From the sequence record PV700625: DNA of 64,000 bases. One strand, 5' to 3'. Shown here piece after piece: positions 7,745-51,325 of this stretch (positions are counted from its first letter, which is position 1; every line of letters starts with the position of its first letter). Below the pieces are notes generated by a model. The model ran no database searches. It saw nothing but the letters and a program-made list of their open reading frames with translations, and had not been told where the DNA came from. The stretch is from Escherichia phage MET-P1-301. A program made the translations under genes and the position numbers.

Positions 7745-7945
7745 ATTCCCACCTGCACCCACCTACCTGCACAATTCTAAAATGATTTTTCTTGCCCGAC
7801 CTGAGCGGGGTCTGCACGTTTTGAAAATGAAAAAGCTCTTTGGAGATTACCTGCACAATTTGAAAATGAATTTTCTCTTTGGAGTTCAAAATTTTCTCTA
7901 CAGATTTCTCTACAGAACTCTACCTGCACAATCCTAAAATAAAAA
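7745..7945. repeat. Three ~25-bp direct repeats (ACCTGCACAAT-NNN-AAAATGA) in a 500-bp non-coding gap; candidate early promoter / operator cluster
   Basis: Copies near 7757, 7848 and 7921; CTCTTTGGAG also duplicated. The gap separates the small-ORF array from the 8015-37323 block. Confidence 0.45.
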
Positions 7946-8014
7946 GCCCTCCTTACCTGAAAAATTTAACAGATAAGAAAGGCTTAGTCTATTGTGAATA
8001 TCCTATAGAGTTTC

Positions 8015-8800
8015 TTAGTTCTTTGCGTCTAAGAAGGTAACTTCCGGTGAAGAGAAAATTTCCTCAACATTCTCATCAGTTCTTGCATAGATATATGTGT
8101 CTGCATCACTGCCAAATGTTACTGCAATTCTGTGATTGCTCTTCGACAGGTGGGTAACTAGAGCGTTACTTAGAGACATCTTTTCAACCGGAGGGTTACT
8201 TTGATGTATCTTGCCTTTTCTTCGTCTGAAGAGGGTAACTGCATCATCAGTGAACGTTACTACACCTGCAAAGTATTCTGGTTCACAGTAGTTCTTCCAA
8301 CCTGAGCGTAACTTGTGGTACATCTCCCCTTCGTAGACATACAGATAGACATCTACATTCTTCATCACCTGATTAATGATAACGGTGACGGCTTGAGGGT
8401 CAAGTCCACCGATGCCTGCACCAATCATAGGTAAACCGACTTTCTTCAACTGATTAACTTCACAGTATCTGTTAAGCTGTTTCAAAGATGATTCTAAAGC
8501 ACTGTATCGGGCATCTTTACCAGTCTTAAGCTGAGTGTAAAGGTTAGCTATACGGCCTTGTTTTAAACGTGCTACAGAGAAATTACCTAGTAAGTTCTCA
8601 CAGGGCTTGTGGCCTATGCCACCTGCATACAGATAAACTTCTGTATCAGTCTCATATGCTTTTGGGTAAAGTTTAGAAATCTTGTCAGCGATACCTGCAC
8701 CCATTAAATTCATACAGTTGCAACCGTGACCAATGACGTCAAACTTACCTTTATCAAATGCGGCAAAGATATCACCATTGATGATTTTTACAATACCCAT
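8015..8800 (-). CDS. Macro-domain protein (TARG1/Poa1p-like ADP-ribose-processing domain) with an unassigned C-terminal extension
   Basis: N-terminal half carries GDIF...DVIGHGCNCMNLMGAGIA...LPMIGAGIGGLDP, matching the TARG1-type macrodomain pattern as I recall it. Confidence 0.6.
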   Translation of the reverse strand: MGIVKIINGDIFAAFDKGKFDVIGHGCNCMNLMGAGIADKISKLYPKAYETDTEVYLYAGGIGHKPCENLLGNFSVARLKQGRIANLYTQLKTGKDARYSALESSLKQLNRYCEVNQLKKVGLPMIGAGIGGLDPQAVTVIINQVMKNVDVYLYVYEGEMYHKLRSGWKNYCEPEYFAGVVTFTDDAVTLFRRRKGKIHQSNPPVEKMSLSNALVTHLSKSNHRIAVTFGSDADTYIYARTDENVEEIFSSPEVTFLDAKN

Positions 8801-9001
8801 TTAACATCTCTCCCAAGATTCTTTATCTTCTGAAGGTTTTACACGTTGTCCTTCATGGTCTACCCAGATACATCCACAACCTTCACAGATTACTGGCATT
8901 GCATAGCCAGCTTTAAAGTCATCTTCAGTGATAAGACCTTTTAAGTCACCTGTATCACGTCCGAACATTTCGATAGCACAGTCTTTGCAGAAGTCAGCCA
9001 T
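8801..9001 (-). CDS. hypothetical Cys-rich small protein (66 aa)
   Basis: CxxC...CEGCGC pattern suggests a zinc-binding fold. Confidence 0.4.
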   Translation of the reverse strand: MADFCKDCAIEMFGRDTGDLKGLITEDDFKAGYAMPVICEGCGCIWVDHEGQRVKPSEDKESWERC

Positions 9002-10358: not shown

Positions 10359-10838
10359 TTAACCGAGGACTTTAGCAAGGATATTTGCAGCCATCGAAGA
10401 AGCTTTTGCAGCAGCAACTACGCCAGCTTTGACAGTGCTATCCTTAATAGCAGATACCGTTGCAGCATCAGTAAAGAGATAAGTGATTGTTTTAGAACCA
10501 CTCGTAAAGGAAAGCATAAGAGTAGTTTCCAGATTGAAAGAGCGATACGGAGCACCTTCTTTAACGATACCTTCAGCACCTAACTCTGAAGCCTTACCCA
10601 TATCATAGATAGTCATCAGGTTTTCTTTGTGTGCAGTCGTTGAACCAGCACCTTTTACGTGCTTCTTAACGTTCAACAATGCACGATATTCACGAATACT
10701 GCCATCAGCTTTTACATTAACAGCACGGAAAATTTTACCTTCAAAGTTACCTTGAATCATTTTACGAACTACTTCAGATTTGTTTGCCGTATCGTCCAGT
10801 GCTACCGTAATGATATTGTTCATAAGTTTTTCTCTCAA
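10359..10838 (-). CDS. hypothetical protein (159 aa)
   Basis: ORF; no motif recognised. Confidence 0.45.
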   Translation of the reverse strand: MREKLMNNIITVALDDTANKSEVVRKMIQGNFEGKIFRAVNVKADGSIREYRALLNVKKHVKGAGSTTAHKENLMTIYDMGKASELGAEGIVKEGAPYRSFNLETTLMLSFTSGSKTITYLFTDAATVSAIKDSTVKAGVVAAAKASSMAANILAKVLG

Positions 10839-11530
10839 TGTTTAACTAACATGGTTTTAATGTGTGGAAGGATTCTGTTAACCTTGTGAACATTCTTCTC
10901 TGTATCTTCTATAAAGCATACTATATTAAAATAAGGAAGAATGCAAGACTGAATCATCCTCACTTTTAAACTTTCTGCACTTATAGAGTTAGTTCCAAAA
11001 CCACGCATAAAAAGCATGTAATCATGTTCTATGTTATGCCTTAAAAACATCTCAGTAGGTATTCTCTGAGATTCACCTCTCGCTGTCAAGAGTCCAATGG
11101 CAGCATGATTAGCAATTGCATCAATAATACTAAAAACATATGTTGGTTTTGCTCTTACAGAGTCAAGAAGATTAGTGTACTGTGAGAATGACCCATCAGT
11201 CAATTCCGTTGAGCAATCTTCGTGATTAAAATTTGTAAGAACACCATCAATATCTGCTAAGATGAGGTTACCTTTTTCTACAAGGTCTTTATTGACTATA
11301 ACTAAACTATCACGCCTTACACCTATAGCTTGTCCAGTCTCTTTGTCCACGACGTTCACAATTGGTTCTGATGTGTGAAACTCTTCAAGTGAACATACAA
11401 CTTCTCTTGCAGTGTCTTCAAAATCCCTGCACTGTTCTGGAGTCCATACACAGGAATCAAGACCTAACTCATGAGGATGCAAGTCATAAGCGTGGCACAG
11501 GACTTCATCAGACTTTCTTAATTTTTTCAT
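10835..11530 (-). CDS. HAD-superfamily phosphatase / nucleotidase-like protein
   Basis: HAD motif I LILADIDGVL in the C-terminal half. Confidence 0.45.
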   Translation of the reverse strand: MKKLRKSDEVLCHAYDLHPHELGLDSCVWTPEQCRDFEDTAREVVCSLEEFHTSEPIVNVVDKETGQAIGVRRDSLVIVNKDLVEKGNLILADIDGVLTNFNHEDCSTELTDGSFSQYTNLLDSVRAKPTYVFSIIDAIANHAAIGLLTARGESQRIPTEMFLRHNIEHDYMLFMRGFGTNSISAESLKVRMIQSCILPYFNIVCFIEDTEKNVHKVNRILPHIKTMLVKH

Positions 11531-13343: not shown

Positions 13344-15709
13344 TTAATCGTAAACTGTAGTTCCTTCTGGAACACACTTCACATCAAAGCCTAAGAACTT
13401 ACTCACTTCGATGGGTGACACTTTATTCCAATCTAAATGAGAAAGCAAGAAGTTTTCTTGTTTTCTTTTTGAAAGGTAGTTTGTCACCTTAATAACCATA
13501 CGGTCACCAGCTTTCTTAATTTTCTTGTAAAGCTTTGTATCGTTGTCAAGACAGTCTTTCAAAGTTTTCAATACACTAATAGTATAAGTGTATGCAAATG
13601 GTGCAGCAACGTATTGGATTTTACCGAACATTGCCTCTACAGCCTCTTCATTACCTTCTAGGAAGATAGTTTTGTTTGTATCCCGTGAATAGCAATAACC
13701 ACGAGAAATCTTCCTATTATTGAATGTAAAGTTTCTGGCAATAATCCAGCTACTTGTAAGGTCAAGAACACCATTCATATAGATGCGTGTCATATACCTG
13801 TTATGATTAATCCAATGAACATCAGTTAAGCTGTCGTTCAAGAGCTTCTCATCTACTTCAATCCAGTCTTCTGGTATCTTTTTCCAATTTGCTTTTCGGA
13901 AAACATAGACTGTCTTTCCAATAACATTAGCAACTGACTTAGCTACATCTTCTGGGGATGAGCAAAAACATTCACCATCAACTGTGTCACCAATTGCCTT
14001 AATGTAAAGCTGAGGTTCTTCAATTGTGTCTAAGTCCTCTGACACCTCTTTGTAGGAGGCTACACCTTCTGCTGGAACAGCTTTCCAGAGTTTTACAACA
14101 CCTCTTACAGCTTCTTTACGCTGGTAATGGTGTTCCTTATCAGACATTTTCACAATCTTTAACAAGCTTTTATCAAGTTTGTGCAGATTGATTAAGTCAT
14201 CTAACTCTTTTTCAGTCGAGAATACAAAGACAATACCATTGTATCTGTGAAACAGACTTGACTCACTGGCATAGTCTCGACATGCACCACGCAAGATTTG
14301 GTTGCGTCCTACAGTCTTCTCAGTACCATTTTTATTGCGACGGTCATTTATAACAAACAAAAACTGTTCAATTTGGCTTTTACGCATTGCGCCAAAGATA
14401 TTGAACATACTTGCCTCTTGAGTGTAGGAAAGTGCTGTTGCACGAATCTTACTCTCTAAAGAGTTGAACTTGACATAAGCAACTGGGTCATAAAGATAAT
14501 CTACTTTAGGGATGTTGTTTCCGTTCCTATCAACCTTAATATTACCTTTACCGTCACGTTCATAAATGACTGAGCCGTCTTCTGCGTAGATAATTCCACG
14601 ACGAATGTTTAGTAATTCTTCTTCCAGAGAATCAAGCTTAACGCCTCCCCACTCTAACTTTGGACACACAGCATTAAACATCTCTCGTGAGTTCAAACGT
14701 AACTCAGCATAAGCCTGTGCAGCATCCATGAGTGTAGGTTGACTGTTAACTTTCTTGATAACATCCTTTGTAATTGCTTCAGTTATCTTTTAGTAGCCTC
14801 AATGATAACATTTTTTGTCGTGTCATTCATCTGCAATGCTTCACGAGAAGCTGCAATAGCGACTGAACCAATAGGCATGTAGATGTTTACAAGGTCTACG
14901 CTCCTACGGAAAAATTCTGGCAATACTTTGAAGAAATCATCACCAAGTAATGCTTCCATGTTAACAGGGTAGGCAATGTTACCCATCACCACATTAAACT
15001 CTGTCCTGTTACCACTAGAACGCCAGCTTTGCTTATGAATCATGGCATCATAAACACCCTCTTCACGGGCAATGACGTTCATATCTGCTAATACATCGTC
15101 GTACACAATATTACTTTCTGGTTTTACAGCAAAGTATGAGTATACATTACCAGCTTCTTCAAAGAACTTTGAGATACGGTGGTCAGCAACTGCCACACGT
15201 ACAGCTAAACCATTAGGTTCTTTTGTTGGGTTAGTGGTCAGCTTAGTTACTTGAGGAATACCATTCTCAAGATAAACAGAGTACTTATTAACAACACCAT
15301 CAACATAGCTAGATACTGTGAATGACTGAGCAATTGCAAATGGTGACTTTGAGCCGATACCCATTGCACCAATGTAATCATTGGAGTCATTCTTCGTAGA
15401 AGCTCCGTAGTTCAGATACAAACTCATTACTTTGTCATGGGTTAAACCAGTTCCAAAGTCACGGACTTCAAAGTAAGGCTCAAAACGAGTAGGTAAATGC
15501 ACATGGAACGGGATGTTCTCTTTTCCAGCTTCTTTCTGAGCATCTACTGCGTTACATGACAGTTCACGAATCACTGCCCTTTCTTTAAAGGTATATACAC
15601 CAGAACTCAAAAGGCTGAACATCTCAGGTGTCATTGTAATCTGTGCTTGAGACGTCTCTAAAGAAGTTGAACTCTTAATCACTTCTGCGTGGTCATTTAC
15701 CATGCGCAT
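13344..15709 (-). CDS. rIIA: rIIA-like protein (N-terminal GHKL ATPase fold), two ORFs probably joined by a frameshift near 14730-14785
   Basis: 14783-15709 has GHKL-type motifs (RELSCNAVDA, RDFGTGL, YIGAMGIGSKSPF, AIAASREAL) recalled from T4 rIIA; 13344-14729 continues; combined ~780 aa; rIIA-rIIB synteny. Confidence 0.7.
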
Positions 15710-16283: not shown

Positions 16284-18064
16284 TTAAAGCTGCTTGTCAA
16301 TATTATTTCGAATATCGCCAAGAGTTGTGTAGCCGAACTGCTCAGAGTCGCTAAAGACTAAACGTAAAGCACAAGCTGGATGCTCAAGTGCATCTGCAAA
16401 ACTCTGGAATCCATAGCCATCTACAGCTTTCAGATTCTCACCATCCCACATAGGGGCTACACCACCAAAAGCGGACTTCTTAATACCACTATCTGTTTTA
16501 GGGTCTTTTGCAAGCATAATCTCTTTACCACCAATGCTTGCAAGAGTTGCTTTGACAGCAAATGCAAAGGTGTCACGAGTCATGTACTGGTAAGTGTAAG
16601 AACCTACACCAAACACTACGTTAGAGCTTGCAAAACCCATTTCATACAAACGCTTCAGGATTTCGTTTGCACGTTCCAACGTGATAGAGTCACCATAGAT
16701 AAGGCCAATGTGCTCATCCAGTACCTTAAACCCTTTAGAGTTGATAGTTCCTCCAAAGATGTTATACAGGGTCTTAATGGCCCCATCAATCTCTGCTACA
16801 GGACGTGTTACAACGTTTGCAGAACCAACCATATAAGCATTTTTCAACATCACTGTATCAGCAACTTCAAAGTCTTCTCTGTCAACAACCATTTCGTAGC
16901 CTTCTGACAGTAGCCATCCAGCAATACCATAGTTGATGTTTTCAAGCTTCATGTTCAGAACAGCATTCAACATTGTGTCACTGGCTTCCAGCTTGCTTAG
17001 GTGCTCGTAATAAGCCTTCTTAGCACATTCTAAGTGGATTGCTTTATAACCTGTGACAATATGTACAGGGTCTCCAGAGTCAGGACGAATTACCAGTTTG
17101 CCATCACGTTCCATAATTTCTTTACGAAGTGCTGGTAAAATTTCTGACACAGTTCTCCAGAAGTTATAAGTGTCTGAAACAACACTTGCAATGCCAGTTG
17201 GGTAAGTTTCTGTTAAGAAACGACGGAAGGTTTGTAACTCACCTTTAAAGCGTCTTTCTTCTTCAATCAACTCATTACCACCTTCCCAAGCAATGTTTGC
17301 ACACATTACAGAGTGCTCAGTGGCTGGTACAGAACTACCAATATCAGAAATTGGGTAAGACTGTCCATAGATTCGTTTAGCCGTATACACAGCAGGAAAG
17401 CTATCAGTTCCTTTAAAGCTTGTTAAGTGACCTACAGCATTAAATGCGTCATCGGTAAAGCCGGACATACCACGCATAGCAAAGTCATGGCACTGATAAG
17501 GTAAATGTAATTCATTGTCGCAAGTAAGGTCAGCCCACTTCTTACAGATACGTTTGTAGTGCAATGCAATAGTCGCAATAGTGCAAGCCTTCCAAATCTC
17601 AGCAGAGAAAGCATCTTCCAGATAACCTGCTACCCAATGGAATCCTGAAACAGTGTTCTGGAAGACAATCATTGGGACACGCATCGGAACAACTGTGCCT
17701 TCTTCTACAGCGTATACTTCGACTGGCAGATAACCTAAGTCGTGAAGTGCTTCCCAATGCTCTCGACCAATAGCATCTTTGCCCAGAACACCGTTCATGA
17801 CTTCTAAGATTTCGTCAATTGCTTCTTTTTATCACGTTCAAAGAAAGTGGCATTCCAGTGGTCTATCAAGTAATCTTTAACAAAACGTTGAATACCAAAA
17901 GCTACTACACCGTCAATTGCTAAGGGGCTGTTAAACCATTTATCACTACGTGGTGTCAGGTTGAACATCAAGTACTCTGTTGCGCTAGGATACTGGTAAA
18001 CATGACCAGATTTGTAAGCATCTGCATTTAAACCTGCTGGTACTGCATAAAGTGATTTAGTCAT
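16284..18064 (-). CDS. nadV: Nicotinamide phosphoribosyltransferase (NadV/NAMPT), interrupted by an apparent frameshift at 17798-17830
   Basis: ORFs 17804-18064 and 16284-17798 together read as a full-length NAMPT-like protein (~590 aa); the junction sits in an A5 run (gataaaaagaag). Confidence 0.8.
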
Positions 18065-18109
18065 CTTTTAATCTCTCTCAAAATGGGGCTTGGAAGCCCC
18101 TATAAAGTT

Positions 18110-19005
18110 TTAATCAAGGTTTGCTACAGTAACTTGGCTATAATGTGTTAAGCCACGGTCTTTAGCTTCTCCTAAAGAGTTTGTAGTGTAGATATGGTCG
18201 ATACCATTGTCAAGAAGGTTTTCAACATCTTTAGAGAAGATACCATGTGTTACATAGAGTTCCACACGTTTTGCACCCACTTCACGAAGATGTTTAGCTG
18301 CTTCTATGAAGGTTCGACCACCATCACAGATATCATCCAGAATCATGACGGTTTTATCTGTCAAATCAACATCATCAAGGATTCGCATACCAGTAATTTC
18401 ACCAGTCTTAAGGTTGCGTACTTTAGACATTGTGATGTATGGTTTATCCACCTCTTTAGCGGTCTCTGCAACCTTCTTAGCAGCACCTGCATCTGGGGCT
18501 ACTAAGTAATCAACCAGTGGGTCATTTGCATAGTGGACTGCAATCTCCTTTGAGGAATACTCTGGAAGCAGTTAAACAGGTTATCTGGAACGTAACTGTG
18601 AGGGTCAACTGCACAGACTGCACCAAATCCCATTGCATTTACCTGTTTAGCAAAAACCTTTAAAGCTGCTGCGTCGCCTTTAAACATGTGACGGTCATAT
18701 CGTGCATTTGGTAAGTAGTAAAAGATGACAGTCTTTAAAGCATAATCATGAGGAATTAAATCATCAATTGCTTCTTTAGCAAGTGCCACAGCAAACAAAG
18801 TGTCCTTATCATAACCTTTTACAATCATAATCACATTGTTGATGGATGATGCTGCATAAGCGGTGAAATCAACAAACTCTGGTGAAAAGTGTCCACCAAT
18901 CTCACCAGAAGGGAATTGGATGATGTTAAACTCTTCTTCATGAGTCCCTTTAGTTGGTGAATGAACTGTAACACGGATAGATGTCTTCATAGTTTTCTCT
19001 CTCAA
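18110..19005 (-). CDS. prs: Ribose-phosphate pyrophosphokinase (PRPP synthetase), interrupted by an apparent frameshift near 18450-18560
   Basis: N-terminal piece has FPSGE and YLPNARYDRH; C-terminal piece has the PRPP-binding loop VMILDDICDGGRT. Confidence 0.75.
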
Positions 19006-48964: not shown

Positions 48965-51325
48965 TTAAGCAGTTCTTACCCAAGCCATTAACTTATAGAA
49001 CTGGTTAGTAACACTAAATGCTGAACCAGAACCAGTACCACCTGTGTTACCACTAACTGTGTGGCTGTGAGCACCAATACCAACAGTGTGGCTGTGGTTA
49101 CCTGTTGTATTCGTTACACCAGACCAGTTTCTTGATGCGTTGAAGTTGACAGGGATACCATTAGTAAAGTTGTTACCAGTATACCCTTTAGAACCTGCCT
49201 GACTACCGAGGTAGAATGCACCACTTGCTGTGTAGAAGCTACTAGCGTCACTTCTGAAGTAACCAAATGAACCAGTAATCTCCATAGTACCTCTGTTGTG
49301 GTTGTGGTTACCAGTTGTGCTAGAGGTCTTAGTACCATAGTCAAATGATGAAGTGGTAGCAGAGAAACTGTGTGTATGTGAAGGTAAGTTACCAACAGAT
49401 AACGTTACAGAGTCTGAACCACCAGTTGTAGCAACATCTGAACCGTTTGCTGCTGCAATTCTAATAGTTCTACCAACACCATTGTTCAGGTACGTCCAAG
49501 TTAGACCAGGAAGTGCTGTATTAGGGTTAACATTACTGTTAAACCACGTTACAATACCTACTGGATAGATTTTATTCAGGTCTGTAGAGTCACTTACTGC
49601 CTGTGCAATCCTCTGGTCAGTTTCAGCTTTAGTGTATGCACCGATATCTGAAGGTGTTGGTTTATCTTTGTCTGTATAGATTTTAGACCAAGCACTCTCA
49701 AAACCATAACCGTCTCTTGCTGACCTATACCAAAAACCACCATTGTTGTAGTTAAATTTTAGCTGAGCCGCTGGTGTAGAACTGCTACCCTGATACATAT
49801 GGTAGACCAGTTGTGTTGAACCACCAGATTTCCCTGTAACATTATACAGACCAGTTTTAGCATTCCAAGCAATGCCATCACTATCACCTACCTCTGTACC
49901 AGTGCCAGAAGAATAAGCAAGCATATACCTAGAGTTTGCGGTAGATTGCGTGTAATATCTAGCATCTAGGTTAGAGAAATCTGAAGGTTGAACTTGACCA
50001 GTGATTGCTAAAGTTGCATTCATTTCGAATGATGAACCAATGTTAAGCCCTTTACCTGTCTTGTAGTTATACAGGTTTAAGATGTCGCTGGCATCACCAT
50101 TCCCAACATACCACTTGCTAGTTCCATCAGCAGATTTACCTCTAATAAACAATGACGTTACAGTTTTTGCTTGTAACGCAAGGGCTTCGCCATCAGAGTT
50201 AATAATCTGCTGCGCAGAGAATGTGTTAACAGCATTAGTTCTTGCAATCGTACTTAATGTTGCTGCCGGAATATATCTAGAGTCAATGTTAGCCCAATCT
50301 GAAGGTTGGACTTGTCCAGTGATTTGCACAGTTTTATTGATACCAATAGTAGTACCTAGCGAAACCTGTGAACCTGCAAGGTAGTTATAAATATTTAGAC
50401 GTGTCTCGTCAGAATCTGTACCAACATACCATTTATTTGTTCCATCAGACTTCTTACCGAGAATGTAAAGTGCTGTACTTGCATCAGTATTCTGCAAAGT
50501 AATAGCATTAGCATTCTTCTTAGCAACAAGGTTAGTGAAAGTGTTAGCACCTGTAAAAGTGTTATTACCAGCTAACTGTGCAAATCTCTGATTAGCAACT
50601 GTCTGAGTAAAGTATCTAGCATCTAAGTTAGAGAAATCTGAAGGTTGAACTTGTCCAGTGATTGCTAAAGATTTATTAACAGAGATGTTGCTTGCAATAG
50701 TCAAGGCTGAATTGTATTTGTTATTATACAACTTCACTTCATCAGAGCCATTACTACCAATACCAACCCACCATCTAGCCGAACCATCTAGGTTTACACC
50801 TTCGATATATTGTGCATTATTTGCATTTTGGTTTCTAAGGCGAAGTAAGTTAGCATCACCTTGAATATTTTGAGTTCCAGAGAATGTGTTTGTGATAGCA
50901 ATTCTTGCGTATCTTGCATCATTCTCTTCATTAGTTCTCATACCAAGCTCATTAGGACTTGGCTTATTCAGAGTATGATAAACAGTTGCTGACCTTGAAG
51001 CATCTGCAATAGTTAGTTTAAGACCATTTGCGTTAATTTTAAAAGTCTTTAAAATATCCCCAATAGTAATCTCAGAAGAGCCTGTAGGGTCAAATACAGC
51101 CTTACCACCATAAAGTAACTTGACAATACCTAAATCCCCAGTCATAGTGCTTCCAGCAATCTGAACAAACCTTTCTAGTTTGAAGGAAGCTAAGAAGTCT
51201 TGATAGGTCATTCTACGGTCTTCATCACCCAACATTTCAGGTCTTTTCTTAACTCTGATGTGCAATAGGTCTTCTGAACGAATTGTGTCGATTGAGTTTA
51301 ACTGACTCAATTTGTAATCTGCCAT
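48965..51325 (-). CDS. Tail fibre protein (786 aa) with C-terminal His-x-His repeats
   Basis: Repetitive beta-rich sequence with NLDARY repeats; C-terminal HTHSFSATT, GNHNHNRG, GNHSHTVGIGAHSHTVSG recall T4 gp37-type tips. Confidence 0.7.
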   Translation of the reverse strand: MADYKLSQLNSIDTIRSEDLLHIRVKKRPEMLGDEDRRMTYQDFLASFKLERFVQIAGSTMTGDLGIVKLLYGGKAVFDPTGSSEITIGDILKTFKINANGLKLTIADASRSATVYHTLNKPSPNELGMRTNEENDARYARIAITNTFSGTQNIQGDANLLRLRNQNANNAQYIEGVNLDGSARWWVGIGSNGSDEVKLYNNKYNSALTIASNISVNKSLAITGQVQPSDFSNLDARYFTQTVANQRFAQLAGNNTFTGANTFTNLVAKKNANAITLQNTDASTALYILGKKSDGTNKWYVGTDSDETRLNIYNYLAGSQVSLGTTIGINKTVQITGQVQPSDWANIDSRYIPAATLSTIARTNAVNTFSAQQIINSDGEALALQAKTVTSLFIRGKSADGTSKWYVGNGDASDILNLYNYKTGKGLNIGSSFEMNATLAITGQVQPSDFSNLDARYYTQSTANSRYMLAYSSGTGTEVGDSDGIAWNAKTGLYNVTGKSGGSTQLVYHMYQGSSSTPAAQLKFNYNNGGFWYRSARDGYGFESAWSKIYTDKDKPTPSDIGAYTKAETDQRIAQAVSDSTDLNKIYPVGIVTWFNSNVNPNTALPGLTWTYLNNGVGRTIRIAAANGSDVATTGGSDSVTLSVGNLPSHTHSFSATTSSFDYGTKTSSTTGNHNHNRGTMEITGSFGYFRSDASSFYTASGAFYLGSQAGSKGYTGNNFTNGIPVNFNASRNWSGVTNTTGNHSHTVGIGAHSHTVSGNTGGTGSGSAFSVTNQFYKLMAWVRTA

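Follow-up and report, generated by a model that had tools for sequence, protein, structure and literature searches.

A two-domain macrodomain protein of Felix O1-like phages as a candidate eraser of DNA ADP-ribosylation

What might a Felix O1-like phage gain from a protein that joins an ADP-ribose-binding macrodomain to a second domain lying outside known families and folds? The question is raised by a gene at positions 8015..8800 (minus strand) of a 64,000-nucleotide stretch of Escherichia phage MET-P1-301 (sequence record PV700625), the whole of which is called the window here. The open reading frame (ORF) had been called at this place by an earlier, sequence-only reading of the window, and it stands as a complete coding sequence of 261 amino acids (aa) plus stop, intact from its ATG start to the stop codon at 8015-8017. 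It is the ortholog of bas63_0095, a 'putative phosphatase' of the BASEL phage Bas63, and of WHM52981.1, a 'macro domain-containing protein', and its orthologs in general are labelled either "phosphatase" or "macro domain protein" in the databases. Annotation as a macro-domain protein is thus already known from many genomes, and the functional class was published in 2025-2026; the two-domain architecture found in the Ounavirinae, with its orphan and fast-evolving C-terminal domain, is undescribed so far. With moderate confidence, and from sequence comparison, we favour the reading that the product is an AdfM-type phage counter-defence enzyme which removes DarT2-made ADP-ribose from DNA.

The macrodomain and its closest relatives

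Residues 1-157 (8330..8800, minus strand) are, by profile searches and a predicted structure alike, a genuine macrodomain with the three-layer alpha/beta/alpha macro fold. Pfam Macro (PF01661) matches residues 25-141 with 32.3 bits against a cut-off of 22 (expect value, E, 1e-7), and phrog_335, itself named "phosphatase", matches across the entire protein at E 6e-113. When sequences of the PDB were searched, TARG1 was found at E 2.5e-5 with the single sequence and at 3.8e-11 with a family profile, and the same profile found DarG of Mycobacterium tuberculosis (3.6e-9) and of Thermus aquaticus (1.6e-7). An AlphaFold2 model of the full-length protein, built from a 19-sequence alignment, reached a predicted local distance difference test score (pLDDT) of 86 and a predicted template modelling score (pTM) of 0.85. 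Foldseek comparison of this model with the PDB placed TARG1 first (E 3.7e-9, template modelling score 0.82 on the target), followed by DarG macrodomains and yeast Poa1p; 215 PDB chains were found at E <= 0.001, and the best 50 of them were all macrodomains or designed proteins on a macro scaffold. The sequence-only reading had named the protein a TARG1/Poa1p-like macrodomain from its motifs and had proposed structure prediction and comparison with TARG1 and DarG as a check. Its call is borne out by the profiles, the model and the fold comparison, in which both proteins are among the top matches, and the motifs themselves are all present: GDIF (residues 9-12), HGCNC (25-29), MGAGIA (33-38) and GAGIGG (127-132).

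Because TARG1 and DarG rank first both by sequence profile and by Foldseek, the macrodomain is placed in the ALC1-like (TARG1/DarG) class, and within it in the subgroup of T4 Tk.4/AdfM. It is 34% identical to Tk.4 (E 3e-25 by BLASTP, with Tk.4 of the T4-like phage ime09, Tequatrovirus); the two have HGCNC, MG.G.A, NLYTQ and IG.GI.GGD motifs in common, and both are encoded by early-region genes. They differ in architecture, the 159 aa of Tk.4 forming one domain and the window protein having a C-terminal domain of 104 aa in addition, and in that the DarTG2 knockout phenotype discussed below belongs to T4, whereas the window protein is known from its sequence. Among the hidden Markov models (HMMs) of defence systems and annotation families, the sole notable matches were two models of DarG, namely PADLOC DarG (PDLC02990; E 2.4e-13, model positions 14-146 of 329, the macro part only) and NCBIfam antitoxin_DarG (NF048014; E 1.3e-12, 47.7 bits, profile positions 12-153 of 338), on both of which Tk.4 scores weaker than the window protein (5.2e-7 and 1.5e-6, respectively). 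DarG (DarG2, the antitoxin of DarTG2) is therefore the best match among defence profiles as well as a top match by fold, and it likewise carries a second domain C-terminal to its macrodomain; on the other hand, the score of 47.7 bits lies far under the 250-bit cut-off of the family, the DarT-binding domain is unmatched, the DarG lysine K80 is replaced by Q90, and the window gene has no darT beside it.

The gene is widespread. The 3 kb of sequence around it share 93-95% identity with dozens of genomes of Felixounavirus phages of Escherichia, Salmonella and Shigella, and by this similarity the window is that of a Felix O1-like (Felixounavirus-like) myovirus; several related phages align with this 3-kb query in two or three separate pieces. 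Searches with tblastn found 257 phage records that cover at least 80% of the 261-aa protein, and by this count the full-length gene is core to the genus. Roughly 2,500 more records, T4-like phages included, match residues ~3-160 only, so that the macrodomain is matched by about 2,800 phage records overall.

Active site and the reaction it may catalyse

The window protein was aligned together with Tk.4, TARG1, PhiKZ gp104 and the macrodomains of two DarG proteins. Both Gly-rich ADP-ribose-binding loops, as the sequence-only reading had expected, are present in it and match those of TARG1 and DarG: the first, HGCNCMNLMGAGIA (residues 25-38; 8687..8728, minus strand), includes the invariant N28, and the second, GAGIGGLD (residues 127-134; 8399..8422, minus strand), is the diphosphate-binding loop. 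Across 19 family members M33, G34, A35, G36, A38, G127, A128, G129, I130 and G132 are invariant, I37 is nearly so, and G131 is either G or A. Between the loops, the motif NLYTQ (residues 86-90; 8531..8545, minus strand) ends in an invariant glutamine, Q90, which is common to the window protein, Tk.4 and the distant two-domain homologs described below, and which occupies the position of the lysines K84 of TARG1, K80 of DarG and that of the 'FPTK' motif of PhiKZ AdfM. The counterpart of TARG1 D125 is G131, and D134 does not vary within the family. Human TARG1 (OARD1, ~24% identical) is the best match of the window protein among solved structures, and by the TARG1 rule (K84 to Q90, D125 to G131) the enzyme would look inactive.

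This apparent inactivity is resolved because SCO6735 of Streptomyces coelicolor, a member of the same ALC1-like class, is active with a glutamine at that position. There Gln85 is required, as the Q85A substitution abolishes hydrolysis of thymidine-linked ADP-ribose on DNA, and the Asp of the TARG1-type Lys/Asp dyad is missing in both DarG and SCO6735 (PMC9411070). By analogy, SCO6735 is the best mechanistic precedent for Q90, although it is a bacterial single-domain protein and matches the window protein weakly when compared directly (5e3b, E 0.44). The second invariant residue has a counterpart in another phage: N28 aligns with N23 of PhiKZ gp104, a macrodomain of the same class from a chimallivirus that was independently named AdfM, and the N23A substitution of this conserved catalytic-site Asn reduces DNA de-ADP-ribosylation (PMC13309987). 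On a TNTC oligonucleotide, PhiKZ gp104 takes off the ADP-ribose that DarT2 has attached, and it also relieves the toxicity of DarT2 (PMC13309987). It is more remote from the window protein than Tk.4, at 23% identity, keeps a DarG-type lysine where the window protein has Q90, and is a single domain that is imported into the phage nucleus.

The closest relative with a phenotype is Tk.4. In a transposon library of T4 grown on a DarTG2 host, tk.4 was the single significant result of the screen, and T4 became sensitive to DarTG2 on clean knockout of the gene, which was named adfM (bioRxiv 10.1101/2025.11.20.689424). The homology to Tk.4, the shared motifs, the precedent of a catalytic Gln in SCO6735 and these phenotypes of homologs are what lead us to an AdfM-type enzyme. 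The account that follows is inferred throughout for this phage, from substrate and catalysis to the action against DarT and whatever the C-terminal domain does. Host DarT2 would use NAD+ to attach ADP-ribose to thymidines of single-stranded phage DNA and so block replication. With its two Gly-rich loops, MGAGIA and GAGIGG, the N-terminal macrodomain would then bind the ADP-ribose, and an activated water would hydrolyse the bond between ribose and base, with reliance on Q90 and N28 in place of the Lys nucleophile that TARG1 and DarG employ. The lineage-specific, beta-rich C-terminal domain may target the enzyme in cis, in a manner analogous, not homologous, to the DarT-binding C-terminal domain of DarG. 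Reversal of DarT-like modification, one of two roles put forward by the sequence-only reading, has thereby gained indirect experimental backing from the T4 homolog, alongside the DarG profiles.

Several points weigh against this reading. The catalytic residues of TARG1 (K84, D125) and of DarG (K80) are absent, and the equivalence of Q90 with Q85 of SCO6735 is transitive, drawn through K84 and K80 and not from a direct alignment. Functional support comes from homologs outside the Felix O1 type; literature searches for Felix O1 or Felixounavirus together with DarTG or a macro domain, and for Bas63 together with DarTG, found nothing, nor did they yield published data on protection of Ounavirinae from DarTG2. 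For T4 the evidence is genetic only, and its authors write that enzymatic removal of ADP-ribose 'seems likely' (10.1101/2025.11.20.689424). Fusion of a related macrodomain to a cREC domain (in P0027, described below) suggests that some relatives, at least, take part in the chemistry of metabolites or of RNA repair, the binding partner of the C-terminal domain is a guess, and the substrates of ALC1-like macrodomains can also be proteins, O-acetyl-ADP-ribose or ADP-ribose-1''-phosphate.

One alternative is that the phage protein reverses ADP-ribosylation of RNA or protein, not of DNA, for example against mRNA-modifying (CmdTAC-like) or protein-modifying toxins. The related TARG1 and SCO6735 do act on protein substrates as well, and a fast-evolving C-terminal domain could recognise a protein target. 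We nevertheless regard this as rather improbable, as nothing supports it directly or specifically, no ADP-ribosyltransferase is annotated in the phage (judged from the Bas63 genome), and the homolog with data shows a DarTG2 phenotype, DarT2 being an enzyme that modifies thymidine in DNA.

The C-terminal domain

Residues 158-261 (8018..8329, minus strand) had been described by the sequence-only reading as some 110 aa devoid of recognisable motifs, and exhaustive searches with Pfam, profiles and folds agree. In the model, these 104 residues nonetheless make up a real, folded and mostly beta domain, in which 6-7 beta strands come after a linker helix and lead to a single C-terminal helix. Its pLDDT is 80-90 whether it is modelled within the full-length protein or alone, with identical secondary structure in both cases, and the full-length pTM given above suggests a fixed mutual arrangement of the two domains. 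The conserved positions are P174, G179 and Y236. Ratios of non-synonymous to synonymous substitution rates within Felixounavirus are 0.15-0.42 for this domain against 0.02-0.10 for the macrodomain, and in comparison with Mooglevirus they are 0.38-0.47 and 0.17-0.21, respectively; by these ratios both domains are under purifying selection, and the C-terminal domain evolves several times faster than the macrodomain. Its identity falls as low as 15-21% where the macrodomain keeps 40-54%, and its net charge is inconsistent among homologs, with isoelectric points from 4.8 to 9.7.

Searches for relatives of this domain returned little beyond the family itself. A Pfam scan of 15 C-terminal domain sequences gave scattered single matches only, at E of at least 0.025, and in the Foldseek comparison with viral models (BFVD) the sole match was a member of the same family, from phage SUSP2. 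When an HMM of the domain was run against 1.84 billion representative proteins, the true matches were macrodomain fusions and two fragments only, one of them (P0032) a truncated copy of the type represented by P0009 and the other P0038; further matches at E 1e-8 to 1e-3, to beta-propeller or other repeat proteins (PQQ, BNR and a retrotransposon polyprotein), were rejected as compositional or repeat noise.

Three more specific candidates were also rejected. The DarT-binding domain of DarG was compared through the full-length NCBIfam and PADLOC models, which match the macro part of the window protein only; a search started from the macrodomain of M. tuberculosis DarG had listed only proteins of 139-248 aa, none of them a full-length DarG. 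Profile alignment with hhalign found no similarity of the C-terminal domain to T4 Tk.3, the product of the gene downstream of tk.4, nor to the cREC part of P0027. The latter, a metagenomic protein of 339 aa, joins a macrodomain of the NLYTQ subfamily to cREC_REC (PF20274, 'cyclic-phosphate processing receiver domain'), a fusion which shows that the subfamily takes varied C-terminal partners.

The domain has been seen only fused to an NLYTQ-type macrodomain, and only in Ounavirinae-like phages. The distant two-domain homologs can be assigned to such phages because they keep a synteny of rIIB - Dam - HAD-PNK - ... - macro (PNK, polynucleotide kinase), and the isolates closest to them are Pectobacterium phages. 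In a sister genus the picture changes: the ortholog of Erwinia phage vEam_PM_27 (Kolesnikvirus; locus L010, 2498-3280, 260 aa) has the same macro core, and hhalign detected no similarity between its last ~100 residues and the profile of the C-terminal domain (probability 0.07). This comparison suggests that the C-terminal module has either diverged beyond recognition or been replaced between sister genera.

What might such a domain do? As it is never found alone, it presumably acts in cis with the macrodomain, and its fast divergence and variable charge favour a module for protein interaction or specificity over a generic binder of nucleic acids. Our best guess, drawn by analogy, is that it is most likely a partner- or substrate-targeting module that recognises a substrate complex or a toxin. 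Toxin binding is the most interesting of these possibilities because the architecture parallels that of DarG2, whose second domain binds DarT2 (PMC11825919). It is conceivable, if unlikely, that the domain is a new fold which binds DarT2 or another host ADP-ribosyltransferase directly and thereby offers the enzyme a further means of neutralising the defence, so that a convergent 'DarG mimic' would have arisen in Ounavirinae phages from a Tk.4-type macrodomain and a toxin-binding module that co-evolves rapidly. Were this so, the divergence of the C-terminal domain into Felixounavirus, Pectobacterium-phage and Kolesnikvirus types would record an arms race with toxin variants.

Genomic setting and significance

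The macro gene sits among early-region genes and is flanked by small phage ORFs without assigned function, none of which had a match in a Pfam scan. Directly upstream, a 66-aa Cys-rich ORF (8801..9001, minus strand; CxxC...CxxCxC, phrog_2210) adjoins the start of the macro gene, its stop codon abutting the ATG in the junction TAAATG, and probably encodes a zinc ribbon. The arrangement is also kept in Mooglevirus Michonne. It is not conserved beside the distant two-domain homologs; at one such locus (L003) the same place is taken by a different ORF, of 63 aa, with CxxC...CxxC. On the other side, downstream, the macro gene is followed by a non-coding gap of ~500 bp, which holds, at 7750-7950, three exact copies of TACCTGCACAAT, each inside a longer repeat of ~29 nt, together with smaller tandem repeats such as TTTCTCTACAGA x2. 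With one mismatch allowed, TACCTGCACAAT has four matches in the window, the fourth of which (49481-49492) carries one mismatch, and none of 100 shuffled sequences reached four. An Rfam scan of the gap gave no match, and a scan of it for promoters and terminators gave nothing above chance.

A little farther off lies a gene at 10835-11530 (minus strand) that relatives name 'polynucleotide kinase' (phrog_3970). In the window it is without a Pfam match at E <= 0.01; in the distant loci its counterparts match HAD_PNKP weakly, and the gene may encode a phosphatase-only relative of PNKP. The macro gene also shares its strand with NadV and Prs, whose presence the sequence-only reading had cited as context. 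Both genes are indeed there, although each is split into two ORFs within 16284-19005: NadV into 504 aa (NAPRTase) and 86 aa (NAMPT_N), and Prs into 113 aa and 167 aa, compared with intact proteins of 593 aa and 293 aa in Bas63. These splits are either assembly errors or pseudogenes. A similar break affects rIIA (13344-15709, with the junction near 14729-14783), which compared with Bas63 has lost 1 nt in a run of A (AAAAA to AAAA). The deletion leaves two ORFs, one of 461 aa and one of 308 aa, in place of the single 788-aa protein of Bas63, and is due either to an error in sequencing the homopolymer or to a real frameshift in rII.

This setting bears on a second explanation of the macrodomain, in which it would be a Poa1p-like ADP-ribose-1''-phosphate phosphatase or an O-acetyl-ADP-ribose deacetylase that clears NAD-derived by-products, for example those of RNA repair, and returns ADP-ribose to NAD+ salvage by NadV and Prs. 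The HAD-type PNK gene ~2 kb upstream, in conserved synteny, would fit such a role, as would the common direction of transcription with NadV and Prs and the fusion of P0027 to a 'cyclic-phosphate processing' domain. Relatives are also labelled 'phosphatase' or 'Poa1p-like', a label whose source is yeast Poa1p; the first loop of Poa1p is of the HxCNC...GGGIA type, as in the window protein, and Poa1p (6lfr) is among the Foldseek matches, with a weak match in sequence over about residues 1-60 only (profile E 6.5e-5). Yet the name 'phosphatase' has been inherited through annotation, and DarG and TARG1 outrank Poa1p by profile and by fold. The annotation of the closely related Bas63 gives no sign of a tRNA-splicing by-product pathway and lists neither an RNA ligase nor a 2'-phosphotransferase of the Tpt1/KptA type, a weak test given that most genes are hypothetical and that the host could supply the pathway. 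With the sole functional data for the subgroup, the T4 tk.4 knockout and screen, showing a DarTG2 phenotype, we consider a Poa1p-type role unlikely.

NAD+ salvage by the phage would also fit pressure from NAD-consuming defences, and with it a third explanation, close to the degradation of ADP-ribose-derived signals that the sequence-only reading had put forward as its other role: the protein might interfere with ADP-ribose immune signalling by cleaving or sequestering Thoeris-type signals (gcADPR, His-ADPR), as a hydrolase or as a sponge. Macrodomains do bind His-ADPR, and the type II Thoeris effector ThsA has one. A literature search, however, brought up no report of an anti-Thoeris phage macrodomain, the nearest relatives have DNA adducts as their substrates, and the invariance of N28 and Q90 speaks for an enzyme rather than a sponge; as nothing specific supports signal degradation, we hold it to be very unlikely.

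If the product is instead an AdfM-type enzyme, as we favour, Felix O1-like phages would be equipped with an eraser of their own for ADP-ribosylated DNA. Wide use is made of these phages in typing, biocontrol and therapy directed at Salmonella and E. coli, and such an eraser would help to account for, and to foresee, which DarTG-carrying strains fall within their host range. An active site of the Gln type, with T4 AdfM and SCO6735 as its other examples, would then be a second catalytic solution of the TARG1/DarG class, extended to a very large family of phages, while the orphan C-terminal domain could show what directs phage erasers to their targets, or in what way a toxin is disarmed by them directly.

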